A stretch of DNA of 49,866 nucleotides, from the NCBI GenBank assembly GCA_001793015.1, contig MGHC01000026.1, forward strand, positions 13,829 to 63,694, read 5' to 3'. Under the pieces are notes generated by a model. The model saw only the letters and a list, made by a program, of their open reading frames with translations. It did no database searches and was not told where the DNA came from. A program made the translations under genes and the position numbers. The stretch comes from Candidatus Woesebacteria bacterium RIFCSPLOWO2_01_FULL_39_10. Lineage in GTDB: Bacteria; Patescibacteriota; Microgenomatia; UBA8517. Below, piece by piece: positions 6,155 to 29,176 of this stretch (the stretch's first letter is position 1; each line of letters begins with the position of its first letter).

Positions 6155-6162
6155 AGCAGGTG

Positions 6163-6297: not shown

Positions 6298-6441
6298 GTT
6301 TATTTCGTATTAGGGATCAACATTAAAGATTATATAGATTCAAACTTGGATTGTCCATTCGTTTTTTTAAAGTTAGCTACAGACCAACGCTTAATCTAAA
6401 GGAAGAACTAAGGGTTTCGGTATTTTTGGGGGTTGACGCGT

Positions 6442-6450
6442 TGTGGATAA
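6442..6450 (-). promoter_or_regulatory. Perfect DnaA box (TGTGGATAA, the complement of TTATCCACA) in the rpmH-dnaA spacer
   Basis: Exact 9-mer read at 6442-6450, 187 nt upstream of the dnaA start. Confidence 0.7.
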
Positions 6451-6486
6451 CTTTTTTAATATAGTGAACACAGTAAGCATATCAAT

Positions 6487-6540
6487 CTTGTTTATCGTGC
6501 GAAGTACGCTGAGCATGACAAACTTTGTTTATCATGCGAA
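6487..6540 (+). repeat. Two copies of a 17-nt direct repeat (cttgtttatcgtgcgaa / tttgtttatcatgcgaa) upstream of dnaA
   Basis: The copies are at 6487-6503 and 6524-6540 and differ at 2 of 17 positions. Both contain a TTATC core, so they could be degenerate DnaA boxes or an operator. Confidence 0.5.
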
Positions 6541-6636
6541 CAGCAAGAGAACTACGGCCCAGTTAGTATTCAGTTGTTGTAGAAATATTCTGCTCTGCCG
6601 AATTTTTCGGTTCTTTAGACCTAACCTTATTCTATT

Positions 6637-8007: not shown

Positions 8008-8032
8008 GGATTCCTTGTTAGATATATTCCAC

Positions 8033-8141
8033 ATATCCACAAAAAACACTAACTTATCCACTTTTTTATGCACATTTCACTACGTTCAATGTAAACAATT
8101 TACTTCGAGCTTTCCTGAAGAGAGAAGTCCACTTATCCACC
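8033..8141 (+). promoter_or_regulatory. DnaA-box cluster in the dnaA-dnaN spacer (candidate oriC)
   Basis: ATATCCACA lies at 8033-8041, TTATCCACT at 8054-8062 and TTATCCACC at 8133-8141. Each is one mismatch from TTATCCACA and all share one orientation. An AT-rich stretch follows at 8150-8200. Confidence 0.65.
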
Positions 8142-8230
8142 GTCCCTACTACTAGTACTACTATATTTTTTAGATAAAAACTCACAAAGGACTAGACATG
8201 TAATCCTTACTATATTAGTATACGTTTACA

Positions 8231-12900: not shown

Positions 12901-13256
12901 TCGTTTACTCCGAGCTGGGAGTAATAATCATTTTCGGGGGTTACGGGGGTTATAACAGTTGGGGGTTCCTCTTGTTTTTCTTCTTCTTCTCTACCGCCGC
13001 CTCCGCCTCCACCACCATAGTAGTGTTTTTTATGCAATAGTGAATAAAGGATTTTGTAGGCTGTGGGGACTTTGGCTTTTGAATCGTATTCTAAGGCTAG
13101 TTCTGGGTTAGTTTTCCACAATTCCTCGTATTCTGGCTCATGTTTAGTTAGTCTGGGGTCTCCATCAGGACCTAAAAGTCCATTTACATCTGCGATAAAT
13201 TCTATCTCTCTATCTTTATGGCCTTCTTTTAATATTGCTCTTGCTTGATCTTGCAT
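9948..13256 (-). CDS. Large membrane protein: two cytoplasmic J-domain-like modules, a TM bundle, and an extracytoplasmic HExxH gluzincin-like domain
   Basis: 1102 aa. The J domain with an intact HPD is HYYAALGLTDAASQTDIKNAYRKLQKELHPDLID (HPD codons at 12555-12563). An upstream degenerate J-like copy, DYYSQLGVNENATGREIEVAYNKGLKLL, lacks HPD. Hydrophobic helices span aa about 625-770. The C-terminal domain has THEASHH (10188-10205) and a downstream NESFAEGNA motif that could supply a third zinc ligand. Confidence 0.7.
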   Translation of the reverse strand: MQDQARAILKEGHKDREIEFIADVNGLLGPDGDPRLTKHEPEYEELWKTNPELALEYDSKAKVPTAYKILYSLLHKKHYYGGGGGGGGREEEEKQEEPPTVITPVTPENDYYSQLGVNENATGREIEVAYNKGLKLLNLDELERSLKERGVPDSEVQEQLKQAKMAYEYYQEANEALGNEEKRRYYDEFRRKSQGAPGQSKSAHYYAALGLTDAASQTDIKNAYRKLQKELHPDLIDKDFREGKISQEEYNRRGELLRDINEAYREVFKREKYNQERQDRDAKKEPEKPPDESKPQGQGPEVEKASKKLEAPTTFELRPGITNYDVFAVPTKEDLPAQAGKKTYHLVWQDKAGNIYTETVDERAKRTDKEEPKSQQKVETPEGYENFKKGFVEKLEKGDLKVESGLYFSLDSEGNPILAGGEKAPERIYLTFTPTVEESEETKKARDREDVKEHLKHVEDSGHFDLDLVTRNELEAARVISKEFNGVEFTTALRIYFQGGRSDDLIDKVAKAKFLTPEEKESFFISSDIIASLEESEKELTKNLQLAFRHPEITIEQVAPKIPSPPFQTLTLERKQEILSPIVKTAVGETVGVAKSQVKKLVVQSLKTEGKKTVTKVAVKTGSKVLANLAASAVTGVATGGIGTAVTIAIKAAGIVLSVIKKAVSIIPKLLGEEDRGNGYMVMGALIMLGGIVLPSLAVTLVGGVVFGSSFLSTVGVAGAGTQAVGFVHSMILGLVYTVAPIFTKAVIIVLITVLLLFIFIILIINNSAFVVPPHQTFAPFGGPLTNPYVGVFKEANPSGPLANNQTYTVTYTVTITALQGTLTNISFSNTCSVYASYTRNCQDLETNIQAGPQSGPLQSFPSIAAAAPQQISATQPYLVSYEVPYTGGQFNDSLISDTFTVTATEPSGTSQTSLGVVSVIIGSPPSSCFVISDNASSWNSSAVVSGYKNNLQRAINRLVTRYPVFVSKVCSGGTVNLCYNPPAVAAWGYHSHSATCDISFDSGGLTREDNATYILTHEASHHLDAIDGSWMSRYINSGAPTLEPPPLCSYPSAGSNQNESFAEGNALYVQLPSFWASRCGNTTFQSRYPRHYNFADTVVFR

Positions 13257-13265
13257 TTTGATTGT

Positions 13266-15188
13266 CTAGTACACTGCTGTGCGCGTAGTATTTGTAAGGA
13301 CCGTTGCTTGTTCAAGAAGCTCAGACGGTTTTGTGGTAACTAGTTTGTGCTCTTCGGGGGAAGCAACGACGGTGATTGGTGCGTGGCTTGTTCCTGCAAA
13401 AAATATACCCTCACCAATATTCGCCCCTAAAAGTAGTTGTTTCTCTCCTTGAGAAAGGTAAAAAACTTCGGCAACACGATCAACGGCCGCAGGGGACTGT
13501 TTAAATAAAACCCTTAAAGCAGAATTTGTAACAATTGCTTTTCCAATATCTTGAGCCAAAAAATCCTCAACGTCTTGCGTAATAGTTGTTAATCCCAAAT
13601 AGTATTTTCTTGCTCTTTTTACAATAGACCAAAGAAACTGTGCTGAATCAGCAAATCTCATCATGTGCCAGGCCTCATCAACAACCATCAAGCGTGGCTT
13701 TAAGTCTTTTCTTATTCGTGTCCAGATAAAATCAAGGATTACAAACATGGCAATTGGGCGCAATGTATCTTGTAATTCCCGAATCGAAAAAACAGTAAAC
13801 GGATTTTCCAATTCAATATTTGTCTGCTTATCAAAAATTCCAACAAAGGATCCTTTAACAAACTTTTCAATTCGGGCAGCTAAATCCAGAGCATCTGTCG
13901 TTTCCATTCCGGTAAGAATCTTATAAAGATCTTCCATTAGGGGAGGTTCTTTTGTTTGGGTTTCAGGGTCCTGTGTTATTCCCTTACTCCTGTAGGTTGC
14001 AACAAGCGCTCTGTCCAATAATGCTTCTTGGAATGGGGTTATTTGACCCATAATGACTTTAAAAAGAGAATGGAGAGATAAGATTTTCAAACCGAGGTTA
14101 TTTTCTCCGGCTTCATATACTTGCGATAAATCAAAAGGATTAATTTTAGAAGGAGAGTTAAAAGAAAAAGCGATATTTTGGCCTCCGACGGCATCTGATA
14201 GTGCTATATATTCACCTTCCGGATCAATAATAATAACTTCGGTTCCCAACATAAGGGATCGTACTGACTCAAGTTTTACAAAATAGCTTTTCCCAGCGCC
14301 CGAAGTCGCGAAGACCGTCATGTTTGAATTCTCTAGAGAAAATCTGTCGAAAATAATAAATGAGCCGTTTTGAGTATTAATTCCGTAAAGAATACCTTTG
14401 TCGCTTGAAAGTTCAGCTGAGGTTAACGGAAATGTGGTTGCCAAGGAGGTCGTATCCATGTTTCTAGTAATTGATAATCTGTCCAGACCAAAAGGAGCGG
14501 TTGACAAAAACCCATTTTCCATATCTAAAGTTGCATGCTGAGCGCGTATTAACAATGATCCTAAAGTTGCTTCAACCTGTTTTGTTATATGATTTAATTG
14601 CTCAAGATCCGCAGCCCGAATTGATATATAGAAACCGAACTCGAAAAAATGTTCAGCTCCTTTTACAAGCTCGTCTTGCAAAAGCCTTGCGTCCTCAAGT
14701 TTTGAAGTTGTTCCTGGGTCAACTATTTTCCCTCGCTCAAGGTCCGTTGCCACTTCAGCCTCCATTTCAGCAACTTTTCGCATCAGATCATCCAAAACAT
14801 TTTTCCCCTCAATTGGGTAAATGAAAAACGATATATCCAGAGAACTATTAAAATTCACAACCTGCTCAAGCCAGCCAGGAGACACAAATCGAGGGTAGCC
14901 TGCGATAAAGAGCGTTCTTAAATAAACGTCGTTTATTTTAAAATAGTCGAAATCCACCTCTACTGCAGAGGATGCAACAACATCAAGAACTTCCATTTTT
15001 TGGTTATTTATTGCCTCGACAGGATCTTTAATTGACGGCTTTTTAGTGAGATCTGAAACGGCTGGTTGAGATTTTACTTCTGATGCGACCTGAATTTTTG
15101 GCACAATGGGAATTGCTTGAGTATCAGGTTGGGGAGGAACCTTTTTTTGCTCAGGCTTTTTATTTCGTTTAAAAAGATTAAATTTCAT
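13266..15188 (-). CDS. virB4: VirB4/TrbE/TraC-like type IV secretion ATPase
   Basis: 640 aa. Walker A is ATSGAGKSYF (about 14281-14309) and Walker B is LMVVDEAWHMM. QFLWSIVKRARKYYLGLTTITQDVEDF follows them. Length and motif order fit VirB4-family ATPases. Confidence 0.8.
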   Translation of the reverse strand: MKFNLFKRNKKPEQKKVPPQPDTQAIPIVPKIQVASEVKSQPAVSDLTKKPSIKDPVEAINNQKMEVLDVVASSAVEVDFDYFKINDVYLRTLFIAGYPRFVSPGWLEQVVNFNSSLDISFFIYPIEGKNVLDDLMRKVAEMEAEVATDLERGKIVDPGTTSKLEDARLLQDELVKGAEHFFEFGFYISIRAADLEQLNHITKQVEATLGSLLIRAQHATLDMENGFLSTAPFGLDRLSITRNMDTTSLATTFPLTSAELSSDKGILYGINTQNGSFIIFDRFSLENSNMTVFATSGAGKSYFVKLESVRSLMLGTEVIIIDPEGEYIALSDAVGGQNIAFSFNSPSKINPFDLSQVYEAGENNLGLKILSLHSLFKVIMGQITPFQEALLDRALVATYRSKGITQDPETQTKEPPLMEDLYKILTGMETTDALDLAARIEKFVKGSFVGIFDKQTNIELENPFTVFSIRELQDTLRPIAMFVILDFIWTRIRKDLKPRLMVVDEAWHMMRFADSAQFLWSIVKRARKYYLGLTTITQDVEDFLAQDIGKAIVTNSALRVLFKQSPAAVDRVAEVFYLSQGEKQLLLGANIGEGIFFAGTSHAPITVVASPEEHKLVTTKPSELLEQATVLTNTTRTAVY

Positions 15189-15947: not shown

Positions 15948-16946
15948 TTAACTTGATTTCTTCGCCCATATTGCAATCGGTGGGATAATTTCTCCTTTTG
16001 CCTCGATCGAGACCGGTTCAAAAATAAGTCCTTCCTTTTCCGTTAGTATTTCGTACCTACCGTCAGCTAATGGAGTTACAATCATAAAATGGCCCAATTT
16101 GTTGCTTTTAAGTGCTCTGGCGGGTCTACCTTCAGTATCTTTTATTTCAAGAATTGCATTTTCCACGATTTTTCCGTCAGGATCAACGACCTGCCCGACG
16201 ATAATATTTGCTTTAGTAGGCGGTGTAGGAGGAGCTGACTCTGGTGAAAAAGTAGCAGACTGTAGATTATCACTCTTTGTTCCAGCCATAGGGTTAACAA
16301 TGGAACTGGTTAGGCTAGAAGGGGCAACAAATAGCTCAACAGGAGGCAAGTCTTGTATCTTTTCCTCATTAGCTACCTCAAGAGGCTGGATATTGGGAAC
16401 CTCGACTTTTTTGGGACTTTGTTGAGATTCTGGAAAAACTGGAGCGGGAGAAACATCTTTTGCAAAATGTTGGGAAATTGAGGTCAGAATCTCCTTTTCC
16501 TTTTTTTCGAGTTTTGTGAATTCAGGAGGATTTACCGCGTCTTCATCGGGCGTGACAAGCGGTTGGATAGGAACTGGTAGTTCTTGGGTGGCCGACGGTA
16601 GGGTAACGGGAGCAACGTTTAATATTGGCTCAGCGGAAAAGTAGGCGGGCTTTTTGTCAGATTTTCTCCAGGTATAAATTGTCGGAGAATAAATTGACTT
16701 AATAAATAAAAGTATCCAGGTTGAAAGCGGTCTATTCTGAAGTGGGAAAAAGGCGAAGGCAACTCCAGCCAAAAAACAAATTATGATTAAAGGCCATTTA
16801 ACATAGGATGGGAGTGAGGAAGAATACAAAAGAAGTGCAAGAAGTGATCCAGCAGCAACTTGAAAAAATTGCTTTAACGTCATGTCTCCCACCAACTTGA
16901 ATTGGAAGGAAGAAATTTGTTGTGGTATCGGATGTTCTAGTTCCAC
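15948..16946 (-). CDS. PrgI/VirB3-like membrane protein fused to a Pro-rich linker and a CarboxypepD_reg-like beta-sandwich
   Basis: 332 aa. The N-terminus IPQQISSFQFKLVGDMTLKQFFQVAAGSLLALLLY plus a second TM helix matches the PrgI-family layout. The C-terminus IIVGQVVDPDGKIVENAILEIKDTEGRPARALKSNKLGHFMI is typical of the carboxypeptidase-regulatory-like fold. Confidence 0.6.
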   Translation of the reverse strand: MELEHPIPQQISSFQFKLVGDMTLKQFFQVAAGSLLALLLYSSSLPSYVKWPLIIICFLAGVAFAFFPLQNRPLSTWILLFIKSIYSPTIYTWRKSDKKPAYFSAEPILNVAPVTLPSATQELPVPIQPLVTPDEDAVNPPEFTKLEKKEKEILTSISQHFAKDVSPAPVFPESQQSPKKVEVPNIQPLEVANEEKIQDLPPVELFVAPSSLTSSIVNPMAGTKSDNLQSATFSPESAPPTPPTKANIIVGQVVDPDGKIVENAILEIKDTEGRPARALKSNKLGHFMIVTPLADGRYEILTEKEGLIFEPVSIEAKGEIIPPIAIWAKKSS

Positions 16947-16997: not shown

Positions 16998-17375
16998 CTA
17001 AGACTGCGTTTTCCTTTCTAAATTTTTCATCATTGTTGTAAGTATTTTTGCGATTTGGTTATTTTCTTCGATAAATACTTTAACGGTTTTGTTATCAAAC
17101 ATTCCCAGCTCTAATATAATTTCTAGCCAATATTCGGTTTCAAAACAAGAGCCTCTCGCTATACTTAGAAATTGTCTGTAACTTTTATCATAATACCTTC
17201 CGTAACCTTCTGCTATATTTGCCGCTATAGAACTTACACTTCGTAAAAGTTGTATTACTAAAAACTCTTGTGTTTTTGGGAACCTTAACTTCGAGAAGTA
17301 CAGACTTGTCTCAATTGTTAAACTTTTTGCTTTTTGGTAAGCTACCAAATTTTTATAGCTGGCTATCTCAATCAT
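16998..17375 (-). CDS. Four-helix-bundle protein (23S rRNA IVS protein / Avd family), copy 1
   Basis: 125 aa. It has AANIAEGYGRYYDKSYRQFLSIARGSCFETEYWLEI, the family signature. Confidence 0.8.
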   Translation of the reverse strand: MIEIASYKNLVAYQKAKSLTIETSLYFSKLRFPKTQEFLVIQLLRSVSSIAANIAEGYGRYYDKSYRQFLSIARGSCFETEYWLEIILELGMFDNKTVKVFIEENNQIAKILTTMMKNLERKTQS

Positions 17376-17482: not shown

Positions 17483-19744
17483 TTGCCTCGAGATGGTAAA
17501 ATATCCTATATGCCAGAAGAAGGAGAAGGAAACCCTGCAAGTATGGGTGACGATATGGAAAGAGAACAACTACCAATTGGTGAAACTCCAGAAGGTCAGA
17601 CAGGCCAAGCTAGTAGTGGTGAAATTCCGACGACACCCGATAGTATATCTCCGGTAAGTCCAGAGAGCCAACCAGAAAGTTCTGCAGAGTCCGAGTACAG
17701 TAGACTTCAAGCCGAACTTCGAAAAACAAGAAAAAAGCTCGCAGAGGAAGCAGAAAAAGGCGGAGCAACAGGCTTAACAGCTGAAGCTTATTTACGCCAG
17801 TTAGAGTTTCTTGACCAGATAGCTGAAGCACAAGCCAATACTGCATTTTATGATCAAGCAACATTTGAACTTGCAGAACTTCAAACACCAGAAGTCTTTA
17901 GACTACCAACTCCTGCGAGAATGTATGAAAGACTTTCTGATGAGGAAAGAGGGACCATAGGGAGAGGGGAATATAATTACTCAAACGACAAATACAAAAA
18001 CGATGTAGAAAAATGGATGGAGGATAGGATTCGAACTTTAGAATCAATAGAACAGCATTTTGAGGAGCAGCCCCAAGCGTACCAAGCTTTAGTAAATGCT
18101 ACTTTCCACTTTTCGCACCGCACTGAAACGAGAACATTAGGAAGAAGAATGAAAGAAAACCTGGACAAACGAAGAATTATTCGGAGAATGGTTAGAATTC
18201 GGGAAGAGGCAGGGGTCCAAGGTTTTTCAGATGTGAGCTCTGCTCTTAAATTTGAGCACCTAATACATGCCTTTAGTTATGAAAGAATTTCAGGTGACGT
18301 AGAACGCGAATTCCAAAACTATGAGCGTATGGGAAGGATTTTGGCACGGAGAAGAGACCTTTTTGGGAATTTAGATCCGGATAGTCAGGAGGGCAAGGAT
18401 CTTAAAAAAGAAATAGATGTTAAAGAAAGATACATTATTGATTATTTTAAGCACGGTGGAGTCGTGGAGGATAAAGGACTTGAGACTGCATATGCACTGG
18501 GGGGCAGAGATAATTCTGAGGATTTTTTCTTTAGGTTGGGCAAAGAAATACCTGATTATGAAAGAGATTACTTAATCGACAGGCAAATTAATGTGTTGGA
18601 AGATGGTGTAAGCGACGAAGCAAAGAGAAGGGAAAGATCTATAGTTGCCAAATATAAGAAAATTAACGAAAAACAAAAAAGAGGACTGCCAATTTCAGAT
18701 GAAGAAAGACTTAGTGATGAAGAAACCAAACTTTTAAAGCTTTTAGAATTTAGAAACAAAGAGTGGGCAACAAAGTACACCGGAGGACTCTATAGTCTTA
18801 CTGGAAGAGCTGCCGCTCAGGGTATGCGATTGGGTGGTTTGGGGGACTTCTATTTGGAAAGGCTTCTTAATATTCAGAGATGGTTCAAAGGCCATAGGGG
18901 TTTAAGAAGAACGGAGGGTATATGGAAAGGCGTGGGAAAATTTGAGGGCAACCCTTTTGATATGGGGCTAAGAGACCCCCTTACCGATATGCTCAAAGAA
19001 GCAGAAGATGAAAACCTTCAATATCTTCAAGGGTTGGGTTTGAATAATGTGGATTTCATTAAAGTGAAAGATGAAGTAGGTGAAGAAATAAATAAGATCG
19101 ATAAAATAATTAGTTTGGAACATGTAAAAATAGGAAGTAAAGATTTGTGGCAAGAATTACTTGATAAAAGGCTAAAGACATATGAAGGAGTGGTTGGAGT
19201 TAATGCTGATTACGAAGCTAAGGCAGAAGTAACAAGAAAGGTGGCTTTACTACCTTATTTACTCAATCCAACCGATGAGAAGTTAATAGCTTTACAAGAT
19301 TACTTTGAACATATGGGGACGGGTGAAGAAAAAGTTGGTTTTACAAGGAAAAACGGAGAACTAGTAGCAGGTAAAACAGAAAAAGTGTCAGGTATAGAAA
19401 CAAAACATATTGAACTGGGAGAAAGAACTCTTGAGTGGATGAGGGCAGATAAAAATGCTCCCGAATCAATAGAAGCCTTAAAATATTCAAAGTTACAAGA
19501 GTATCTTAACTTGATAGATCTAATGTCTAAGGAAGAGCTGATAAGTAATGAAAGAAGAGACTTTCTTTACAAAGAGTATTTGGGAACTTCAATAAAAACT
19601 TGGGCTCAGACAAAAACGCAGGTGGATCAGATGGTAGGCTTTATTTTTCGAAATCCCGAAACCCGGGCATTGAACATAAGTAATTTCTTATCAAACCTTT
19701 TGAAACGACTTTTCGGATATGTATTTCAAGAAGAAGCAAGGTAA
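17483..19744 (+). CDS. Hypothetical highly charged soluble protein (the only plus-strand gene inside the locus)
   Basis: ORF track, 753 aa starting at a TTG. The first ATG is at 17510 (MPEEGEGN...). It is rich in E, K and R, has no TM helix, and I recognise no family. Confidence 0.55.
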   Translation: MPRDGKISYMPEEGEGNPASMGDDMEREQLPIGETPEGQTGQASSGEIPTTPDSISPVSPESQPESSAESEYSRLQAELRKTRKKLAEEAEKGGATGLTAEAYLRQLEFLDQIAEAQANTAFYDQATFELAELQTPEVFRLPTPARMYERLSDEERGTIGRGEYNYSNDKYKNDVEKWMEDRIRTLESIEQHFEEQPQAYQALVNATFHFSHRTETRTLGRRMKENLDKRRIIRRMVRIREEAGVQGFSDVSSALKFEHLIHAFSYERISGDVEREFQNYERMGRILARRRDLFGNLDPDSQEGKDLKKEIDVKERYIIDYFKHGGVVEDKGLETAYALGGRDNSEDFFFRLGKEIPDYERDYLIDRQINVLEDGVSDEAKRRERSIVAKYKKINEKQKRGLPISDEERLSDEETKLLKLLEFRNKEWATKYTGGLYSLTGRAAAQGMRLGGLGDFYLERLLNIQRWFKGHRGLRRTEGIWKGVGKFEGNPFDMGLRDPLTDMLKEAEDENLQYLQGLGLNNVDFIKVKDEVGEEINKIDKIISLEHVKIGSKDLWQELLDKRLKTYEGVVGVNADYEAKAEVTRKVALLPYLLNPTDEKLIALQDYFEHMGTGEEKVGFTRKNGELVAGKTEKVSGIETKHIELGERTLEWMRADKNAPESIEALKYSKLQEYLNLIDLMSKEELISNERRDFLYKEYLGTSIKTWAQTKTQVDQMVGFIFRNPETRALNISNFLSNLLKRLFGYVFQEEAR

Positions 19745-19775: not shown

Positions 19776-21791
19776 TTATTTAAAAGCCTGAAAGGAATTT
19801 ATTAATCCTTGCTTTATACTCGTTTTGCGTATGGAGGAGAGAGTACTTCCTACGAGGATTCCATTTGCCCAATACAATCCTGTTTCCCCAGCCGGAAGTA
19901 TATCGTAAGTGAAGTCCTTCTGGTAAAAAATATTATCGGCGGTTGTTACGTGACCTCCATCGTAAACATCTGCTACCTTAAGATCAGCAATTGTATAACC
20001 GTCACTTCTAGGGTGGCCAGGTGAAACGAAGAGTTCACGCCCATCGTCAATGACAAGATGAGTTATTATATGTGTCTTCGGCACTGGTGTAATGATAGCC
20101 TTAAGGATCTTTACGGAGATACGCAAACCAGATTTGTTTAATGTCCATATTTTTACCCCCTTCTTTAGATGTTGAACAGCAATCGCTCCTTTTGGAGTGT
20201 CAATTAGCGTATCTTCGGAAAGACATGGTTTCCTCCCAAACGCACTGAAAAGCCCCCTCCATCCACGAGCTTCAATTTCACCCATGATTTTCTTTTCATA
20301 ACCGCCCCTTATAAGACCGTAAGGATAAGTAATAGGTTGTGCACCAATTCCCACTCCAGTCATAATAGCAGCACCAATTGCAGAACCATACCCAAACGGC
20401 CTCTTGGAAATAAGCGATTGAATTATATTAGCGATATTTGGAACCAAAGCGAGTATTCCAATTGCAACTATAAATCCGAAATTAATCCCCGTTCCCAGAT
20501 CGAAACCAGGCAGATGAATAGTACCCGAACCTCCTAAAGATTGTATTCCGTACGGGTTTAATAAATTTACAGTGTTAAGCCCAGTGAAAATCGTTTCAAA
20601 TATGCCAGGATTCGTTGCATTAAATGAACTCCAGAAAATAAAATGAGCCAAAAAAAACATAGCAATTATTCCGGGAAATACTGCAACTTGGGCTACTAGG
20701 TCTCTAAGCCAACTACCGAACCCTCCAGTATTGGGAAATATTCCGCCTAATATTATTATTGGGCCAAAAACTATAAGAAGAACGATATTTATAAAGGTTT
20801 TTATCCAAGTCCAAAGAATTCGTAGCCAGATAAGTATGAAAAAAGCGATAATTACAAGGAATATAATGCCCTGAATAAATAATGCTGGTACTGCCATGGT
20901 TACTGATAAAACTCCAACGGTTAGTGGGATTATTGTATACGCTGTAATGTAAGTATTTACAATCAAAAACATTGTAATCATTGGATGGCCTCCAATAAGT
21001 TTGGTGTAAAGTTCAACTGCAGAAAGAGAACTTACAGAATCAGCGGCAACGGCAAGAAGCCCGACGGATACAAAAGAAAGGTCTATAACAAATCCTGCTA
21101 TCGCATAGGAAAATGTGATTAACAATAAAACGAATATCATGCGGGGAATTGCGGACTGAATAGTGATTACTGTCTGCGGAGATATTTTCAGTCTAAACAT
21201 GACCATGAAGGAAATGGCAACGAATGCTATGACCAAAAGAAAGTACGCAATATTTCTTATTGCCTTCCAAATTTCTTGAATTGGAGAGAGCGTTGAAAAA
21301 CCAAATCCTTGGGCTTCGGCCTGAGGAATTAGGTGAAATTGTGATAATTTATTTTGTATATACCCAATACCGGAAATCGGATTATTGGATACAGTATTAT
21401 TAATTACCTGAGCTAAGTTGGTCTCACCCACATAACCGATCCCAAAAGCTTGGAAGATGCCGGAAATTACTCCTGCTAAACAAGCCGAAATAGATGTGGG
21501 GCTTGCAAAATTTGTTCCAATACAGAGTAATATTTCCGGGGGCATAAATGCCGCTTTCAACGCGTGTAGAATCCAAATTACTTGTGCCTGAGTATAGCGT
21601 TCGCCGAAAATCTCATCTGGATTGGTTTGATCGTAAACCTTTGTCGCGTACTCGCCAAATGTCGGGTGATACCATGTTCCTACTTGTGCCTGAGCATAAG
21701 GAGTAACAAGACTAACTAGAAGTACTGAAGCCAGAACTAAGGATATGATCAGTTTTTTGATTAATGACAATTGACTTTTGACTTTTGACAT
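19776..21791 (-). CDS. Polytopic VirB6/TrbL-like membrane protein with a C-terminal Hint domain
   Basis: 671 aa. A signal-like N-terminus (LVLASVLLVSLVTPYAQAQ) is followed by at least 8 hydrophobic helices, then a Hint domain starting at Cys523. The VirB6 assignment rests on topology and context only. Confidence 0.6.
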   Translation of the reverse strand: MSKVKSQLSLIKKLIISLVLASVLLVSLVTPYAQAQVGTWYHPTFGEYATKVYDQTNPDEIFGERYTQAQVIWILHALKAAFMPPEILLCIGTNFASPTSISACLAGVISGIFQAFGIGYVGETNLAQVINNTVSNNPISGIGYIQNKLSQFHLIPQAEAQGFGFSTLSPIQEIWKAIRNIAYFLLVIAFVAISFMVMFRLKISPQTVITIQSAIPRMIFVLLLITFSYAIAGFVIDLSFVSVGLLAVAADSVSSLSAVELYTKLIGGHPMITMFLIVNTYITAYTIIPLTVGVLSVTMAVPALFIQGIIFLVIIAFFILIWLRILWTWIKTFINIVLLIVFGPIIILGGIFPNTGGFGSWLRDLVAQVAVFPGIIAMFFLAHFIFWSSFNATNPGIFETIFTGLNTVNLLNPYGIQSLGGSGTIHLPGFDLGTGINFGFIVAIGILALVPNIANIIQSLISKRPFGYGSAIGAAIMTGVGIGAQPITYPYGLIRGGYEKKIMGEIEARGWRGLFSAFGRKPCLSEDTLIDTPKGAIAVQHLKKGVKIWTLNKSGLRISVKILKAIITPVPKTHIITHLVIDDGRELFVSPGHPRSDGYTIADLKVADVYDGGHVTTADNIFYQKDFTYDILPAGETGLYWANGILVGSTLSSIRKTSIKQGLINSFQAFK
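19848..20225 (-). other. Hint (Hedgehog/intein-like, BIL-type) domain at the C-terminus of the VirB6-like protein
   Basis: Block A is CLSEDTLIDTPKGAIAVQHL (Cys codon at 20225-20223). Block B is LFVSPGHP (an SxxH variant of TxxH). The terminal block is FTYDILPAGETGLYWANGILVGS, where the canonical HN is replaced by GS, and 23 more residues follow. Confidence 0.7.
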
Positions 21792-21906: not shown

Positions 21907-22278
21907 TTAATTGCCATCTTTTAAAAGTTTTCTTCTGAAGGCAGTAATCTGATTTGCTAATTTTTGTGCATTCTCTAAGTATTGAATGTGAATTTCTTTT
22001 GAAATGTATCTATCTAACAATGCTATATCGAGGCAAGCGACAATTTCATTAATAGAAGTATGAGATTTATTTAAGAAATTGGCAAAATCTTTATCAGTAC
22101 TCCGATCAGTACCCTCTGCGATATTTAGTATGATTGAATTAGCGGCTCTAATTATTTGATCCCCTAAAAGATATAACTCGTAATCAGGGAAGTATTTCTT
22201 AACTAGCGTTTTAATTTCACTTCTAAAAACAAGTGCATCTTTATAAACTTGAAATTTTCTGAATCTAAATTTCTTCAT
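21907..22278 (-). CDS. Four-helix-bundle protein (23S rRNA IVS protein / Avd family), copy 2
   Basis: 123 aa, with IILNIAEGTDRSTDKDFANFLNKSHTSINEIVACLDIA. Confidence 0.8.
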   Translation of the reverse strand: MKKFRFRKFQVYKDALVFRSEIKTLVKKYFPDYELYLLGDQIIRAANSIILNIAEGTDRSTDKDFANFLNKSHTSINEIVACLDIALLDRYISKEIHIQYLENAQKLANQITAFRRKLLKDGN

Positions 22279-22303: not shown

Positions 22304-22789
22304 TCACAGGTTTTGTTGGCAAAAACTAAGTTTATATATCTGACCTGCATTATCGGGATTTGCGGATGCAGGAGTCGCAACGTCCACGTTCAATTTGCAG
22401 GCCTCTTCCGGGGTTATTCCTAGTTTTTCTAAGAAAACTTTTTCAGCGGCATCCTTCTGTTCGTTAAATGGTGAGGCAGAGATTGTAATATAAAAAAGGG
22501 TTTGGTCGGGAAGATAGAAAATATGAAAATTGTCTGTGCGGGAAATTGTGACATAACTTTTTTTATCGAAATTTTCTATACCCTTTGTAAAGTCATTCAT
22601 TCTTACACCCGAAATTACGATTGTTGGGCCTTTAAATCTATTATTCCCAGGCAAGAATTTAGAAAGAAATTCGGTGTTTTTAAAAACTTTTACCAAAACC
22701 AATACACAAAGTATAAGAAATATAAAGAGAATTACTCTTTTTACGTCCCTTCCCGGCTTTGTGTTTTCGTTTTTTTTCTTTATGGGCAT
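22304..22789 (-). CDS. Hypothetical membrane-anchored protein
   Basis: The ORF track gives 22304-22843. I prefer the ATG at 22789 (MPIKKKNEN...), which overlaps the upstream stop by 10 nt. It has a single TM helix (VILFIFLILCVLVLV). Confidence 0.5.
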   Translation of the reverse strand: MPIKKKNENTKPGRDVKRVILFIFLILCVLVLVKVFKNTEFLSKFLPGNNRFKGPTIVISGVRMNDFTKGIENFDKKSYVTISRTDNFHIFYLPDQTLFYITISASPFNEQKDAAEKVFLEKLGITPEEACKLNVDVATPASANPDNAGQIYKLSFCQQNL

Positions 22790-25700
22790 AGGCTGGCTAC
22801 AAGTTGCATGCAAATAACATTGGGTGATCCCCAAGGACTCCAATCTTGTCCACCTCCGGACATTGCAGAAGCGTAAGCTGCGTTTTCGTCTGGATCAAAA
22901 TACCCAAAAAATGTTTGTCCATCGCCGTATAAACAATAATCAACTGTCGGTTGGTCTAGTATTTGGCAGGAGGGATTGGGGTACGATGTATAACTAAAGG
23001 CCGCTGCACACACAGGCGGGTGAACTAAGAGGTTTATTTGGAAAAGACCAGCTGAATAGTCGGGAGTCGCTCCAATTCTACAATCATCATTTAAGGCTGT
23101 GGGGTTTCCACCTGACTCTCTGTTGCAAATAACTGAGGCTTGGTTGGCGTGACATCCTGGGAACCATTGGCTAAGATATGTTGGGCTGCAAAGCCCCGTT
23201 CCGATCTGACATCTTCCTCCGGTCGGAGCAGCCGGTGCTGTACAAAGGGATTGAAATACTTGATAAGCATCTTTTAAGGGAGAAAAGCCGGCAAGGGGTT
23301 CTCCCGTTAGACCCATACAGAGAGGTCCCTCAGGGGGTGGGATATCATGAAGCATGTGTAAATCGGCAAACTCGACATAATTTTGTGTAAAGATCCAGCT
23401 TAGGGCGTCTTGTACTCTTTGGGCCTGTTCTGCATAACTTAAGCCACCTATACAATAATTAGAGTTAGTTGCATGGATAGTGTTGAAGCCGTATTCAGTC
23501 AGCCAGATTTTATTGTTTGAATAGCCCCTTGTAACCATAATATCTCTTATTGCCAAAACGTTATTACGGTCTAAGGGGTCAGTATTTCGATTTGCCCCAT
23601 AAGGGTGAAACGTAACTGCGTCAAATCTTCCATTATATCGGTAATAATCATCTACTGCGGAAGCTCCGGCTCCCCCCAGCGGGGCCGCTGCGGCGATTGT
23701 AAGGCTTGAGTCAACTTGCTTTGCGGCATCACTGAATTGATTTAACCAAAATACATATAGCGCAGGATCGAAGTTCCCATTGGGATCATAGTTCCCATTA
23801 ATACCTTTGAAGTTTTCCCACATATCTGGCTCATTCCAAAATTCCCAATTTCTAATTCTTGGGTATTTTCTGACCACGTCTTGTGCAAACTGTCTAAATT
23901 CATTTACAACATTTTGATCATTACGATCCATTACACATTTTGTTTGATTACGGATACAACTGTTGGGATCGTTAGGATCTCCGGGATTGATAGTATTCCA
24001 AGGAGGAATTGTGACAAAAATTCCAATTATTGTTGTATTGTTTCCCAGCATCGTGTTTACGGCTGTATCAATTCCATTTCCATTCCAGTCATAAACGTCT
24101 TTTGTTGCTCCTTCAACTGCCGCCCAGTCTATTCCGAACCTGACGTTGGTTACTCCCAAAGTTCTGAAGTGTTGGGTAAATTGGGTAGGATTGTCCTTGA
24201 TTCTCCAAGATTGGGCAGAGATTCCACACCTTGCTCCTCCAATTTGGCCGAGAGGGGCGTATGGGTCGTTGAGTGGGTCTGGGGCAGACGTACATCCTTG
24301 GCCAAAACCCTTAGGTCTAAGCGTTTTTTGAATACAATTTAAAAAGTATTCATGAATTCCGCCGATATGGGGAAAGTAAAGTTCGGCTTGAGACCCCAAC
24401 CGCCCGGTTGCTGGATTTCCTGCAAGTGCACCACCGGTGACTGTATAGTTTACGGGAGAGGCTGCCGGAATGTCCCAAAGCCGTCTAATAGGACGCCCCG
24501 GCGCATCCTCGATTTTTGGAAATATTCTTTTAAATACGGCGGCTGGACCTGCAACCAAACGAGACCAAACCTCATCGGCTAGAGGAGTCTCCGTTACAGT
24601 CTGAAGAGCAATTGTTGCCGTACTTGAGCAATTTTGAGTTAGATTAAGGTTACTGCCAAAATTGGGATCAATTCCGCAAGTTAGATTACCTGTTCCTGTG
24701 TTGCAGGCTAATCCTGGGCAACATTGACCAAGCGATATCCCCGAAGCCTCGCAGACTTGCCCCGAAGGTATACAAGTAGGAGCAGCAGGAGTGCATCCGA
24801 CACCACAGAATTGATTCAGTCCGCAGTCGACTTGACCATAGTAATTGCTACAGTTCCAGTTTGAAACAGGTAGGGGCTGACAAGAACCAGATCCACCTGT
24901 TAATTTACTACAAAGATTTCCTTGAAGAGTGGGGTCATAGATAGCAAAATCACAGGACATTTGGGCAGTATACTGAATCGTTGCGGTCAGATTTGAGGCA
25001 AAAAGAGAGTCTCCCGGGTTTGACCGAATTTCGCGTATGTCGCAATATTGAGCACTTGGCGCAATGGCAGGATCTGCTGGAGCAGCAAGATCTGCTCCTT
25101 TATACGAGTGAAGAGTTTGTAAAAGCTCTCCAAGCTCGTTTGATTCAAGCATGTGGGAAAAATAAAGAAAGGAAGGATTTTGTTTTGTAATTTGAGAACT
25201 TAAGATCGTTACACTACTGGAACCCGCGGGTTGAATGGAATAAGTATCTAATCTACTTTGACCAACCCTATCTTCAGTTGAGGAGAAAGGAATATAGGAA
25301 AACATTGTTGAACTTGCAGGATTAAATAATCTCCAGAACTGATACCGTATCCAATAAACAAAAAATGGACTGGGATTAACTGGAAGGGGTGGGGGTGGTT
25401 GTCCGGGATTAACTAAATTCCAATACAGATTCCATATTGAACTAAGAAGAGATATATTCCAGATGCGCTGAAGTGGCGGTGCTTGAGTTACAAAGTCAGA
25501 TAGCCTAGCCCCAGGTGGGATGAGTGGTGGGAGTTGAAGACCCGGATAACAGTGAGATACCCCAAGAAGGATGTTCGAGCACGCGACAATCTGATTATGA
25601 CGAATATTACCCTGCTGTTGTTTGTCTACCTCTTGAATTCTTCTGACGACCTGGCTCTCCCAAGAAAGCAGTCTTTTCAAAGGTCCGGAAAAGTCTATGA

Positions 25701-27843
25701 TCCTCTTTTCTCCTTGGGTTGTAAGATTTCCAAAGATGTCAGTATCTGGCGGGTCATATTCTGCTCGGCCTATTACTCCATTTAAATACCAACTGACATA
25801 TTCGTTTACTTTTTGTGGGTCGGTTACTGTTTCGTCTTGAAATCGGCTGTTTATAACTCTAAAAGGGTCAGACTGGTTACCTATTGAAGGTTCAGTGTAA
25901 CCCATTATCGGTAATTCTGTATCTTGAGGGTCGATGGTGATATCCCTGGTTCTTGAGATGTTAAAAACGCAAGTTTCGGTTCCGTCGCCGTTATCACGAC
26001 AATCAGGAGAGTTTGCGCACTGATTAGGAAGGGTCGGATCGCAAGTGTTTAAAGACGGAATGCATTGTGAAGATGGAGTAGTGGATACCGAAGTACATTG
26101 CGGAGCAAGCCAGTGTTCAATATCTGGCTCATTCGGCCCAGTAATTGCGTAAACAGTCCCGCTTACTTGACTGTCAATTGACCGAAGGAAGGCTCCGTAT
26201 TGTGATGCTGACGGACCACTTGTCCAACTTGCATCACCAATTCGGATTATCGGAATAAGGTTACGACTATGTGCGATACCAATATCTGTAAGGACTGGGG
26301 TTTCGTCGATGCCGTTGGAAATAGCTAGTGTGTAAATCATTCCATCGACTCCATCGACGTCTGAGTAAAATTGTGACGGGGCTGAGTAATATACAGCAGA
26401 ATTCGCTCCAAGTTTTGTGCACGGAAGGCTACCGCAGGCGGTTGCAAAGTCGGATATCTTTCCCTGGTTCAGTAAATTTGGATTCCAAGTTGCGGGATCG
26501 TAATTTCCGTAACCGAAACCGTTAAAGAATAGCGCCCCTAAGTAACTGGAATCTCCCTTTACTAACGACATTTGTGTTCCAAGATCGCCCAGTGTTCCAT
26601 CGATAACGCCTGTTTCGGTTACCATTACAGGAAGGTTTAAGCCAGTAGCTGTTCTGAAGGCCGACACGTGTCCGGTAACATTATTACCACAACAGTTATA
26701 AGCGTTTCCTGCGATACCAGTAAGAGATGACCAGTCGGCACCGGCAGCATTCATTGCGCTCGCAATTTGATATGTCACGGGATTTGTGAAGTTAAATGCA
26801 GGAGAAAGAAATTTAATATGCGTTAAAGGCCCTGCGCTTGTTGCGCTGGATATCACACCATTCATATAAGATGCAAGTGCAGTTCCCATACAAGTTGGGT
26901 CAAATCCGATTGGTGAACAATTTCCGCCTCGACAGGCATAGCATGCTGCTCCAAGAGGTGTAGAAGGAACTGCGGGAGGAGAGGAGTAGCTTCCTGAATA
27001 ATTTGAGGGGTCGAATTGTTTATCAACGCTAAAGCTGTCAGTTAAAATAAAATCGTTTCCGCAAAAAAGCGCCAAATCTTCCAAACGCCTATTACAAGGA
27101 CTTGCCTGGTAGGGTCTTAGAGAGTGAAATTCGCCTTCAAAAGGATGAGTTAAGTTTGGCCTCGTTTCGTTACAAGGAACATACGGATCTGGATATGGGG
27201 TGCGCCTTCCAGGCGGTGGAGGATTTGTAACAGAATTACTACAAATTGCAGGAGGACGCTTTGGGTCATATTCTGGATTTCGTACGCTGCAAGAGCCGTA
27301 TGTTTTTGACTCTGGGCAATGACTTACAGGTGAACCGCAGCAGAATACATTTGAGCCGCAGGCCAAAATATCAGTTATTCCAGTCCAGGCACCTGTATTA
27401 AAAGTAACATCTGAGGGTGTGGCAAATTGTTGCCATCCTTTGTCAACGGAAATACCGGCCGGTGTGATAGGACCATCAAAGTTTGTTCCCCAACAAATAA
27501 GGGACGTATTACTCCAACTTGTTCGAGAGCAATAAGGTATAGTTTCCGCAGCCGTACCACAAACTGGGTTTCTAACAGCGTCATAAGCATTTGCTTCCCA
27601 CTGAGTATCGCATTTTACCGCGACCCCCTGTGTATTAATTGTTGCGTCATATAGAATTGCAGGTGGGGTCGGAGCTGCTGTATCGCAGGCACAGTTACTG
27701 CCGTCAGGATTGACGCAATAACAGGCAGCCTTAATTTCTTTTGGAAATGTAAAAAATAGTAAGAAGAAAAAACCCACTAAGAAAGTCAAGAAGTATATTC
27801 TAATAAACTCTTTGTTATTAAAAAAAAAATTGGACAGAAACAT
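22780..27843 (-). CDS. Giant secreted Cys-rich multi-hydrolase with clan GH-A-like TIM-barrel module(s) and a C-terminal lysozyme-like domain
   Basis: 1687 aa with an N-terminal TM/signal (IYFLTFLVGFFFLLFFTF). The GH-A motif is IRNWEFWNEPDMW (Glu codon at 23830-23832) and the nucleophile motif is KIWLTEYGF (Glu codon at 23494-23496). Earlier NEP-like and TE-like motifs are YAITGPNEPDIEHW (about 26111-26150) and VMVTETGV. The C-terminus CNRESGGNPTALNDDCRIGATPDYSAGLFQIN (from 23127 downward) parallels the E...S..DYG.xQIN pattern of C-type lysozyme and lytic transglycosylases. Knottin-like Cys clusters occur throughout. Confidence 0.65.
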   Translation of the reverse strand: MFLSNFFFNNKEFIRIYFLTFLVGFFFLLFFTFPKEIKAACYCVNPDGSNCACDTAAPTPPAILYDATINTQGVAVKCDTQWEANAYDAVRNPVCGTAAETIPYCSRTSWSNTSLICWGTNFDGPITPAGISVDKGWQQFATPSDVTFNTGAWTGITDILACGSNVFCCGSPVSHCPESKTYGSCSVRNPEYDPKRPPAICSNSVTNPPPPGRRTPYPDPYVPCNETRPNLTHPFEGEFHSLRPYQASPCNRRLEDLALFCGNDFILTDSFSVDKQFDPSNYSGSYSSPPAVPSTPLGAACYACRGGNCSPIGFDPTCMGTALASYMNGVISSATSAGPLTHIKFLSPAFNFTNPVTYQIASAMNAAGADWSSLTGIAGNAYNCCGNNVTGHVSAFRTATGLNLPVMVTETGVIDGTLGDLGTQMSLVKGDSSYLGALFFNGFGYGNYDPATWNPNLLNQGKISDFATACGSLPCTKLGANSAVYYSAPSQFYSDVDGVDGMIYTLAISNGIDETPVLTDIGIAHSRNLIPIIRIGDASWTSGPSASQYGAFLRSIDSQVSGTVYAITGPNEPDIEHWLAPQCTSVSTTPSSQCIPSLNTCDPTLPNQCANSPDCRDNGDGTETCVFNISRTRDITIDPQDTELPIMGYTEPSIGNQSDPFRVINSRFQDETVTDPQKVNEYVSWYLNGVIGRAEYDPPDTDIFGNLTTQGEKRIIDFSGPLKRLLSWESQVVRRIQEVDKQQQGNIRHNQIVACSNILLGVSHCYPGLQLPPLIPPGARLSDFVTQAPPLQRIWNISLLSSIWNLYWNLVNPGQPPPPLPVNPSPFFVYWIRYQFWRLFNPASSTMFSYIPFSSTEDRVGQSRLDTYSIQPAGSSSVTILSSQITKQNPSFLYFSHMLESNELGELLQTLHSYKGADLAAPADPAIAPSAQYCDIREIRSNPGDSLFASNLTATIQYTAQMSCDFAIYDPTLQGNLCSKLTGGSGSCQPLPVSNWNCSNYYGQVDCGLNQFCGVGCTPAAPTCIPSGQVCEASGISLGQCCPGLACNTGTGNLTCGIDPNFGSNLNLTQNCSSTATIALQTVTETPLADEVWSRLVAGPAAVFKRIFPKIEDAPGRPIRRLWDIPAASPVNYTVTGGALAGNPATGRLGSQAELYFPHIGGIHEYFLNCIQKTLRPKGFGQGCTSAPDPLNDPYAPLGQIGGARCGISAQSWRIKDNPTQFTQHFRTLGVTNVRFGIDWAAVEGATKDVYDWNGNGIDTAVNTMLGNNTTIIGIFVTIPPWNTINPGDPNDPNSCIRNQTKCVMDRNDQNVVNEFRQFAQDVVRKYPRIRNWEFWNEPDMWENFKGINGNYDPNGNFDPALYVFWLNQFSDAAKQVDSSLTIAAAAPLGGAGASAVDDYYRYNGRFDAVTFHPYGANRNTDPLDRNNVLAIRDIMVTRGYSNNKIWLTEYGFNTIHATNSNYCIGGLSYAEQAQRVQDALSWIFTQNYVEFADLHMLHDIPPPEGPLCMGLTGEPLAGFSPLKDAYQVFQSLCTAPAAPTGGRCQIGTGLCSPTYLSQWFPGCHANQASVICNRESGGNPTALNDDCRIGATPDYSAGLFQINLLVHPPVCAAAFSYTSYPNPSCQILDQPTVDYCLYGDGQTFFGYFDPDENAAYASAMSGGGQDWSPWGSPNVICMQLVASLCP

Positions 27844-28286: not shown

Positions 28287-28637
28287 TTATGGAGCTTGTG
28301 CATTCGGGATATTGAGTTGCAATATGTTTACCCCGAAGAATATATTAACTAAGTTGATTATTGCCCAAGCTGCAAAGACTATAACTAATCCAACTAGTGC
28401 TGCGGTGATTTGACCTCGCGCAGCCTCTGTCTGGGCTTTGTCGCCACCTGAAGTTATGTATCTTACTCCACCCCAGACTAGCATGAAGAAGAAAACTAAA
28501 GCTGCGACAATAAGAACTAAAATTATTAGAGCGGAAATAATGTTAGCAATCGTAATGTTATTAAGACCCGAGAACTGTCCTCCAGGGCTAATGTTGATTG
28601 GACTTTGGGCGAGAACTGTTGAAAAAAGTGTTGTCAT
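28287..28637 (-). CDS. VirB2/TrbC-like pilin-module protein P2 (own promoter and terminator; candidate major pilin)
   Basis: 116 aa, with YITSGGDKAQTEAARGQITAALVG between two TM helices. Confidence 0.7.
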   Translation of the reverse strand: MTTLFSTVLAQSPINISPGGQFSGLNNITIANIISALIILVLIVAALVFFFMLVWGGVRYITSGGDKAQTEAARGQITAALVGLVIVFAAWAIINLVNIFFGVNILQLNIPNAQAP

Positions 28638-28670
28638 GAAATTTATTTAATTATCTTTATGCTGATTATT

Positions 28671-28700
28671 ATTATGGCCATCACCAATTCTTTTTGTCAA
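28671..28700 (-). promoter_or_regulatory. Sigma70-like promoter for P2 (TTGACA-N18-CATAAT)
   Basis: On the minus strand, TTGACA is the reverse complement of 28695-28700 and CATAAT is the reverse complement of 28671-28676. The -10 element ends 33 nt before the P2 ATG. Confidence 0.45.
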
Positions 28701-28801
28701 GGGGTAAAATGATCTCAATTTTATCCCCTAACGGACATTTTGTGTGCAAAAAAACTTTTTTCTTGACCCAACTTACATTTCCTGCAAGGTGAGTTTTTCA
28801 A

Positions 28802-29176
28802 TTAAGGTATTCTAATTGCATTAATCATTGACTGAAGGTCGAGGATGTCCGGGAGTCCAAGTAAGGTGGCGATAAGGTCAAAAAGAAACATTGCGGCAAT
28901 TACAGCGACAAAACCGATTGCCCCAGTTGTGATTCTTCTTCTGGCACTTTCGTACGCCGCTTTATCTCCACCAGATGAAATAATACCTAGGGCACCTGTT
29001 ATTAGTACGAACATAAAGTAAAGTGCTCCGATGACTGTTAAAACGCCGATGGTTGTCGACAAGATTTGAGCAAGAATTCCAACGGCTCCTCCAGCACCTC
29101 CCACCAAACCAATAGTCCCTATACCGCTTAAGGGATTACCAATGGGTGTAGGATTTTGTGCAATCAAACTTTCCAT
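28802..29176 (-). CDS. VirB2/TrbC-like pilin-module protein P3
   Basis: 124 aa, with IISSGGDKAAYESARRRITTGAIG between two TM helices. Confidence 0.7.
   Translation of the reverse strand: MESLIAQNPTPIGNPLSGIGTIGLVGGAGGAVGILAQILSTTIGVLTVIGALYFMFVLITGALGIISSGGDKAAYESARRRITTGAIGFVAVIAAMFLFDLIATLLGLPDILDLQSMINAIRIP

Follow-up and report, generated by a model that had tools for sequence, protein, structure and literature searches.

What is an intein-like domain doing at the C-terminus of a membrane protein that is encoded among genes of a type IV secretion system (T4SS)? This question is raised by a 49,866-nucleotide stretch of DNA (the window; positions 13,829 to 63,694 of contig MGHC01000026.1) from Candidatus Woesebacteria bacterium RIFCSPLOWO2_01_FULL_39_10, in which one gene encodes a protein of 671 amino acids (aa) with a polytopic membrane part, a candidate analogue of VirB6, and a C-terminal Hint domain. 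Residues 523-671 of this protein are a genuine Hint domain of the intein/Hedgehog type. We assign a probability of about 60% to the reading that they constitute a cassette of the B-type bacterial intein-like (BIL) or Hedgehog/Hog kind which removes itself and thereby restores a near-native host protein.

In the 671-aa protein, a signal peptide is followed by an acidic N-terminal domain of ~140 aa, ~7 hydrophobic helices, a basic linker and the Hint domain. The linker ends with ...GLFSAFGRKP directly before Cys523, and the junction reads ...GRKP-CLSEDTLIDTPK (longer junction-spanning stretch: KPCLSEDTLIDTPK). Residues 523-671 (nt 19779-20225) comprise CLSEDTLIDTPKGAIAVQHL ... LFVSPGHP ... YDILPAGETGLYWANGILVGS, then TLSSIRKTSIKQGLINSFQAFK, and the stop codon is located at 19776-19778. 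The codons of Cys523, SPGH, Asp630 and Gly-Ser were checked by hand against the DNA. All strings quoted for the Hint region by a first-pass annotation, which had been made from the sequence alone, were present with correct coordinates; its count of 23 residues beyond Gly-Ser has to be corrected to 22.

The product is 100% identical to OGM21152.1 (A2714_03045, hypothetical protein) of Candidatus Woesebacteria bacterium RIFCSPHIGHO2_01_FULL_38_9. The fused open reading frame was reproducible: it was present in 8 contigs, under two NCBI accessions and as an independent ENA variant, and UniRef automatically names the 671-aa protein 'Hint domain-containing protein'. Two further entries, P0002 (552 aa) and P0384 (534 aa), are database fragments of this protein. 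P0002 lacks residues ~386-455 and is broken off inside the Hint domain, yet serves as the representative of its 50% cluster; clustered databases can therefore conceal fused proteins when the representative is odd or Hint-less. A tblastn search detected no paralogous Hint copies in the window, and base composition gave no signal of a foreign origin of the Hint part (GC content of 0.41 versus 0.39 in the membrane part).

Profile search, comparison with sequences of known structure, modelling and fold comparison agree on a C-terminal Hint domain, as the first-pass annotation had proposed. Pfam Hint_2 (PF13403) matched the query with E = 5.5e-5 and 24.0 bits as compared to a gathering score of 28.4, with block A alone being aligned; the same model matched 59 of 59 aligned relatives at E ≤ 0.01, the best of them with 5.3e-11. 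Vint and TIGR01445 matched the query weakly. A phmmer search against PDB sequences identified the consensus DnaE-type intein CatC (E = 1.9e-6) over domain residues 53-125, which cover blocks B-G. In this alignment, S-P-G-H is paired with S-D-N-H of the intein and YDILPAGETGLYWANGILV with YDLLNVGEDNLYYTNGIVS; with a profile of the family, the match rose to E = 5.6e-9. An AlphaFold2 (AF2) model of the Hint domain built on 59 relatives reached a mean predicted local distance difference test score (pLDDT) of 94.6. Foldseek comparison with PDB yielded 59 significant matches at E ≤ 1e-3, and all 50 that were listed have the Hint fold. They include the Ssp DnaB mini-intein 1mi8 (E 8.6e-8, TM-scores 0.73/0.77), the C. 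thermocellum BIL domain 2lwy (TM-scores 0.73/0.78), the Hedgehog autoprocessing domain 1at0 (E 2.5e-6), gp41-1, the Mtu RecA intein and Tetrahymena BIL2 (6y75).

The residues required for the first step of autoprocessing are in place. Cys1, Ser68, His71 and Asp108 in domain numbering, corresponding to Cys523, Ser590, His593 and Asp630, were invariant in the 59-sequence alignment; among them are the Cys and the His of SPGHP, which had been singled out as block A nucleophile and block B motif in the first-pass annotation. Motifs were also counted in two censuses, one of 122 close relatives and one of 141 representatives of clusters at 50% identity. Cys1 and Ser-x-x-His recur throughout both (~260 relatives together with the alignment), and block B was S-x-x-H in 97 of 97 motif-matching sequences. 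In inteins, formation of the thioester is promoted by three residues around the N-terminal scissile bond, namely Thr B:7, His B:10 and Asp F:4 (PMC4031507). Position B:7 is Ser in the query and likewise in the CatC intein.

At its C-terminal end, the domain departs from an intein. Among the 122 close relatives, the position of the intein His is variable (G, K, D, Q, A, R) and that of the Asn is occupied by Ser. In the census of representatives, 132 of 136 have Ser where an intein has Asn, and Thr-Leu follows in 123; 100 of the 136 proteins end ≤5 residues past this Ser, and in most relatives 3-5 residues are typical. The replacement of His-Asn by Gly-Ser noticed at the outset is real, and its Ser turns out to be a trait of the family. 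Because neither Asn nor a C-extein is present, splicing and Asn-dependent C-terminal cleavage are excluded on sequence grounds. N-terminal cleavage without splicing, as the first-pass annotation had predicted, is the correct reading of the sequence, given Ser in place of Asn and the lack of a C-extein in most relatives. B-type BIL domains possess all intein motifs but the C-terminal one, and their cleavage is uncoupled from splicing (PMC4031507, PMC7765530).

Self-cleavage of the Hint tail at the N-terminal junction Pro522/Cys523 is the chemistry that we infer from these residues. Cys523 would attack the carbonyl group of Pro522 in an N-to-S acyl shift aided by Ser590, His593 and Asp630, and the thioester would then be resolved by water or a small thiol. 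A 149-aa fragment consisting of Hint domain plus tail would be released, leaving a 522-aa membrane protein that ends with ...SAFGRKP and has a length as found in Hint-less homologs of 510-560 aa. If the domain takes itself off in this way, its insertion at a C-terminal tail that is variable and probably cytoplasmic would do almost no harm. Self-removal would explain why the domain is tolerated there, and it fits a sporadic distribution as well as the habit of BIL domains, which generally sit in variable regions (PMC7765530). The Hint domain would presumably have no dedicated role in secretion.

Homologs of the host protein were surveyed for the same tail. Among the 120 best clusters of the host family, the Hint domain was carried by two only, the query's own cluster and P0006 (684 aa); otherwise, lengths are 443-589 aa. 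Hint-less homologs stop 0-30 residues past the junction, an example being P0004, which ends ...GWRAIFKAFRPGGSTAKGT. The membrane part of P0006 shares only 37% identity with that of the query and 83.5% with Hint-less P0083. Contigs L001 (P0006) and L005 (P0083) are collinear at 79% nucleotide identity on both sides of the cassette. At the cassette, L001 has 494 nt versus 46 nt in L005, and the difference is exactly Hint domain, tail and stop. The cassette stands in place of the last ~six codons, which read ...AFLRRSGRRV before the stop codon in the Hint-less gene versus ...AFFRQTRP/CLTEN... in the fused gene (the slash marks the junction). A cassette of ~450 nt, comprising Hint domain, short tail and stop, would thus have entered the 3' end of the gene and replaced the last few host codons.

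The Hint domains of query and P0006 are mutual nearest relatives with 69% identity, supported by 280 of 500 bootstraps; this support is only moderate because the same groundwater metagenomes contain Hint domains of non-T4SS proteins with 64-67% identity. A third fusion, L096, was found in a metagenome scan. It is a member of the host family of ~725 aa with 29% identity to the query, and its gene is located directly downstream of a T4SS_pilin gene (E 2.7e-10). At its junction, a Pro/Thr-rich linker is followed by ...GAPT/CLPSNTLIDTP; its Hint domain is 43% identical to that of the query, holds rank 334 among the query's matches and continues with a 20-residue tail past Gly-Ser. So distant a Hint domain indicates an independent acquisition, and the sequences argue for at least two independent acquisitions by one host family. 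Between the three fusions, the Hint domains differ by 31-57%, and each of them has all four catalytic positions and x-S-T-L at its end. A scan of GTDB species-representative genomes found Hint relatives and no further VirB6-like fusion. By these comparisons, the Hint tail is a rare and recently acquired add-on (recent at least in the P0006 lineage) and not part of the core of the T4SS machine.

Origin by fusion with an adjacent small Hint gene was considered and rejected. It does not agree with the Hint-less loci L005, L007, L100 and L101, where no Hint gene lies beside the host gene and the next gene is a convergent homolog of the 753-aa gene described below. The neighbourhoods of small Hint proteins, moreover, are not T4SS loci.

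The VirB6-like character that the first-pass annotation had ascribed to the host protein is suggested by T4SS gene context, polytopic topology and a weak fold match to TrwI, but by no sequence model. Pfam VirB6/TrbL matched 0 of 50 sequences (query plus 49 homologs, E ≤ 1), the host family had no match to any model of Pfam, NCBIfam or PHROGs, and a profile of 119 host homologs found nothing among PDB sequences. The AF2 model of the full protein has a pLDDT >90 over roughly residues 170-470, the membrane core, in which invariant residues of the host family include P205, Q206, P216, F227, S228, G233, D237 and P344. In a Foldseek search with the full model, TrwI/VirB6 of plasmid R388 occupied 5 of the top 7 ranks with weak scores (E 0.1-1.6, probability 0.47-0.80, TM-score 0.29-0.43). 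From position, polytopic topology and this fold match, a VirB6-like protein is a reasonable hypothesis. In Microgenomatia, few VirB6 homologues can be recognised, which is probably due to divergence (PMC12102498); Woesebacteria are part of the Microgenomates group.

Positive-inside statistics were obtained for the 119 homologs. The N-terminal domain has a net charge of -6.4, loop 200-217 of +3.0 and loop 389-435 of -2.3, and Hint-less C-terminal tails contain 9.6 K+R versus 4.3 D+E. These values suggest, with some uncertainty, seven transmembrane segments with the N-terminus outside and the C-terminus, hence also the Hint domain, in the cytoplasm.

Several observations weigh against self-removal as described here. 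The R-K-P/C junction of the query is atypical: among 126 representatives of the family, Cys is found at position -3 in 101 and Ile at -1 in 98, whereas the query lacks the Cys and has Pro at -1, a residue that occurs there in only 2 of 126. Pro at -1 is unfavourable for several inteins of expression systems. The proposed topology violates the positive-inside rule once, at loop 322-332, and AF2 draws residues 297-341 as one long helix. Furthermore, a cytoplasmic Hint domain would be unusual, since most members of the family are exported. A basic tail of 20-22 residues, which most family members lack, is present in all three divergent fusions, and this recurrent architecture hints at selection beyond neutral passage. 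With respect to Pro522, a scan of position -1 in one intein placed Pro in the slow class, yet N-terminal cleavage was nearly complete in 20 h (PMC11842431). Pro at -1 is therefore expected to slow the reaction and not necessarily to prevent cleavage; P0218 and P0233 are family members which also carry it.

The same junction speaks for a rival reading. Here, the Hint domain would stay on as a catalytically silent globular appendage, for example a cytoplasmic interaction or plug domain, or would be a recent insertion in decay. Pro at -1 and the missing C-P-I/C junction agree with this, as does the sporadic distribution; and with acquisition being recent at least in the P0006 lineage, intact motifs need not reflect selection there. 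Against it, the four catalytic positions and x-S-T-L are intact in three fusions with the divergence given above, the tested intein was cleaved nearly completely behind Pro, and the few other members with Pro at -1 show that the query is not alone. We regard a silent passenger as doubtful. Less likely still is a Hedgehog-like ligation, in which the Pro522 thioester would be attacked by a lipid head-group, a cell-wall amine, or a Lys or the N-terminus of another T4SS subunit, so that the C-terminus of the channel would be modified or anchored and the 22-residue basic helix would act as an adaptor akin to the sterol-recognition region. A cargo followed by Hint at the extreme C-terminus without Asn is the Hedgehog architecture, 1at0 is among the fold matches, and the tail, which in the query is modelled as a helix with net charge +4, has 20-22 residues in all three VirB6-like fusions as compared to the 100 of 136 representatives that end ≤5 residues past Ser. 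However, this tail is far shorter than a sterol-recognition region, is not conserved among the three fusions and has only a moderate hydrophobic moment (best 11-mer ~0.4). No partner gene co-occurs with the Hint family, and close Hint-less homologs evidently work without any such modification.

A degenerate true intein near the host C-terminus, with the last 22 residues as C-extein, would account for the intein-like fold, for blocks A, B and F and for the Thr at +1 right after Ser. It is effectively refuted: across the family, Ser almost always takes the place of the terminal Asn; Hint-less homologs stop at the junction and have nothing that corresponds to the 22-residue tail; in the nearest relatives the domain sits C-terminally, with only 3-5 residues past Ser; and a homing endonuclease is lacking. 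Hint domains are also used in secreted bacterial toxins, where a pretoxin-type Hint releases a C-terminal toxin domain. This was rejected for the query and deserves hardly any credence: just 22 residues follow the Hint domain, so no toxin domain lies downstream of it; an Asn for C-terminal cleavage is missing; Pfam, PHROG and NCBIfam gave no toxin match; and the next gene is not immunity-like, being instead the conserved convergent 753-aa gene. Self-removal through N-terminal cleavage remains the reading that we prefer.

The Hint domain was also followed beyond the host family. A protein search with Hint alone retrieved ~150 proteins from Patescibacteria, Woesearchaeota, Chloroflexi and Dadabacteria, almost all of them 180-260 aa long and 43-66% identical to the query Hint. 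At the N-terminus they have a membrane anchor or a Tat signal; a short region, '...C-P-I-C/L-x-x-N-T-L-I-D-T-P...' and Hint follow. This search with the 149-aa Hint, being word-indexed, missed the query's own 671-aa protein and P0006; it thus under-samples Hint domains on long proteins, for which exhaustive searches or scans of DNA are needed. Exhaustive phmmer with residues 440-671 against 1.84 billion cluster representatives yielded 1351 matches at E ≤ 1e-3 and 1091 at E ≤ 1e-10, each match being a cluster at 50% identity. The best 150 of the 1351 are proteins of 153-993 aa in which Hint lies at the C-terminal end or close to it. N-terminal partners include subtilase, a caspase-like domain followed by a transmembrane segment, FGE-sulfatase, beta-helix repeats and peptidoglycan-binding repeats. 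The genome scan added members in Methanosarcinales, Bacteroidetes, Anaerolineae, Myxococcales and Binatia, and altogether >1000 Hint clusters are spread across candidate phyla radiation (CPR) bacteria, DPANN and other archaea, Chloroflexi, Myxococcota and others. Judged by its sequences, the family is a large, promiscuous C-terminal module on diverse, mostly exported proteins, of which the query is one instance, and it is peripheral to Pfam Hint_2. In the neighbourhoods of small Hint proteins, no partner gene co-occurring with the family was found.

Additional features of the family were observed. A subgroup with P0180, P0202, P0218, P0233 and others consists of a twin-arginine (RREFLEKV) signal, ≤8 residues, Hint and a tail of 14-27 residues with 'IRK'; after export, almost no N-extein would remain in these proteins for release. 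One gene of this subgroup (L003:8001-8612) adjoins a PqqD-like gene and three glycosyltransferase genes. In P0121, P0137, P0243-P0245, P0274, P0329 and many otherwise unrelated proteins, a domain of ~85 aa with the pattern ...SL.EGQRE..LL.EKIYPD...G.NF.EYP...P.TL..GE...NGCT.TL.L......A.F.K..D..RPCPIC is located directly upstream of Hint; no Pfam match was seen for it. Since it recurs, the mobile unit may often be the ~85-aa domain plus Hint.

The C-P-I/C junction of most family members resembles the CPGC disulfide 'redox trap' that has been engineered into inteins (PMC4031507), and in exported members it may be a natural redox switch. Cys at -3 is absent from all three T4SS fusions. A long shot, by our estimate, is that the family is a prokaryotic counterpart of Hedgehog processing: the new C-terminus would be passed to a specific acceptor (a lipid, a cell-wall component or another protein), with a Cys(-3)-Cys1 disulfide gating exported members by redox state. 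For the T4SS case this would mean that the C-terminus of the channel is modified or cross-linked, or that a Hint fragment is freed whose basic tail resembles a T4SS export signal.

The host gene belongs to an origin-proximal T4SS-like cluster near dnaA, dnaN, rnpA and yidC (Table 1). Origin-proximal T4SS of the monoderm type have been described for Patescibacteria, and the location agrees with this (PMC12102498). The 1687-aa protein of the cluster is probably its VirB1-like cell-wall hydrolase; homologs in syntenic loci are of very variable size, ranging from 469 to >1322 aa. The 753-aa gene was found in convergent orientation immediately downstream of the candidate VirB6 gene in L001, L005, L007, L096, L100 and L101 as well, and its product is probably a conserved member of the Patescibacteria T4SS cluster that has escaped recognition. 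The host gene and its 753-aa neighbour are bracketed by a pair of paralogous 23S_rRNA_IVP (four-helix-bundle) genes, at 16998-17375 (-) and 21907-22278 (-); the syntenic Hint-less loci L101 and L007 have neither. The gene at 9948-13256 (-), directly downstream of that for the VirB4-like ATPase, encodes a protein of 1102 aa whose residues 205-238 match DnaJ (J-domain).

Table 1. Features of the fused gene and of the surrounding T4SS-like cluster (positions in the window)
Feature	Position	Strand	Basis or remark
Whole gene: signal peptide, polytopic membrane protein (candidate VirB6 analogue) and C-terminal Hint domain, 671 aa	19776..21791	(-)	
Membrane core, residues 178-462, ~7 hydrophobic helices; conserved part of host family	20406..21260	(-)	hydropathy, AF2, conservation
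Basic, variable C-terminal linker of host protein, residues 463-522, end ...GWRGLFSAFGRKP	20226..20405	(-)	
Hint core, residues 523-651, Cys523 (block A nucleophile, codon 20223-20225) to ...GSTL	19839..20225	(-)	
Block B Ser590-Pro-Gly-His593, equivalent to intein Thr(B:7)-x-x-His(B:10)	20013..20024	(-)	Ser and His invariant in family
Asp630 in YDILP, equivalent to Asp at intein block F position 4	19902..19904	(-)	invariant in family alignment
Gly648-Ser649 at positions of intein penultimate His and terminal Asn	19845..19850	(-)	Ser near-invariant in family
22-residue basic tail TLSSIRKTSIKQGLINSFQAFK, net charge +4	19779..19844	(-)	modelled helix, pLDDT ~75
VirB4-like ATPase (TraG P-loop, AAA_10, CagE_TrbE_VirB)	13266..15188	(-)	defines T4SS context
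PrgI/VirB3-like membrane protein with CarboxypepD_reg-like C-terminal domain	15948..16946	(-)	
Convergent 753-aa gene, no Pfam match	17483..19744	(+)	conserved downstream neighbour of host gene, distal boundary of Hint cassette
1687-aa secreted Cys-rich protein, C-terminal SLT_3 lysozyme-like domain	22780..27843	(-)	weak glycosyl-hydrolase-core match
Two T4SS_pilin (PF18895) genes, 28287-28637 and 28802-29176	28287..29176	(-)	
rnpA 5801-6154, yidC 4620-5432, dnaA 6637-8007, dnaN 8231-9352	610-9352		

Compared to known systems, the domain is closest in kind to B-type BIL domains and Hint_2 proteins, with which it shares the Hint fold, intact Cys1 and blocks A, B and F, and the absence of block G similarity. 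These domains, too, reside in the variable parts of bacterial proteins that are non-conserved and mostly secreted, and they are expected to cleave rather than splice (PMC4031507, PMC7765530). In contrast to them, the query's subfamily is located at the very C-terminus, has a conserved x-S-T-L end and usually the C-P-I/C junction; the query itself scores below the Hint_2 gathering threshold, and its host is a polytopic T4SS membrane protein. A-type BIL domains differ in having a conserved His-Asn without a +1 nucleophile where the query ends x-Ser-Thr-Leu. With Hedgehog/Hog proteins, the query has in common a cargo followed by C-terminal Hint, the predicted thioester at Cys without Asn and without splicing, and the fold match to 1at0; its prokaryotic origin, the junction Lys-Pro/Cys-Leu instead of Gly-Cys-Phe, and the non-conserved 22-residue tail instead of a sterol-recognition region set it apart. 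Mini-inteins (Ssp DnaB, gp41-1, the DnaE-type consensus 'Cat') match best in both structure and sequence, with each residue of blocks A, B and F aligned, but the query lacks His-Asn and C-extein and is not inserted into a site conserved within a conserved protein. Splicing is therefore not expected.

Similar to VirB6/TrwI proteins, including 'extended VirB6', the host protein is polytopic and encoded among genes for VirB4, VirB3/PrgI-like, VirB1-like and T4SS pilin proteins near the origin (PMC12102498). Unlike them, it has no sequence-level match (0/50 with Pfam) and reaches a Foldseek E of ~0.1 only. Known extended VirB6 proteins carry functional C-terminal domains and are not known to have a self-removing Hint. 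Full-text searches found no paper linking Hint or BIL domains to VirB6-type proteins or to T4SS of CPR bacteria. Domain type, fold and predicted chemistry are already known; what is new is the host context, a T4SS membrane protein.

If cleavage occurs, the Hint domain would be a naturally occurring C-terminal tag that takes itself off a membrane subunit of a T4SS, in a bacterium that is uncultivated and depends on a host. In a cultivated relative, T4SS genes have been reported to be essential for growth as an epibiont (PMC12102498). The impact on T4SS biology is probably small: the domain is missing from close homologs, and after processing the product would resemble them. The clean indel between loci of 79% identity usefully illustrates how such modules move to the 3' end of a gene. 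A lead of greater interest is the very large, uncharacterised family of terminal Hint domains with Ser for Asn and the C-P-I/C junction, found on proteases, caspase-like, sulfatase-maturase-like and many unknown exported proteins. Its chemistry, that is, hydrolysis versus transfer and possible redox gating, is cheap to probe, and for protein engineering the family could be a source of N-cleaving tags that are compact (~130 aa).

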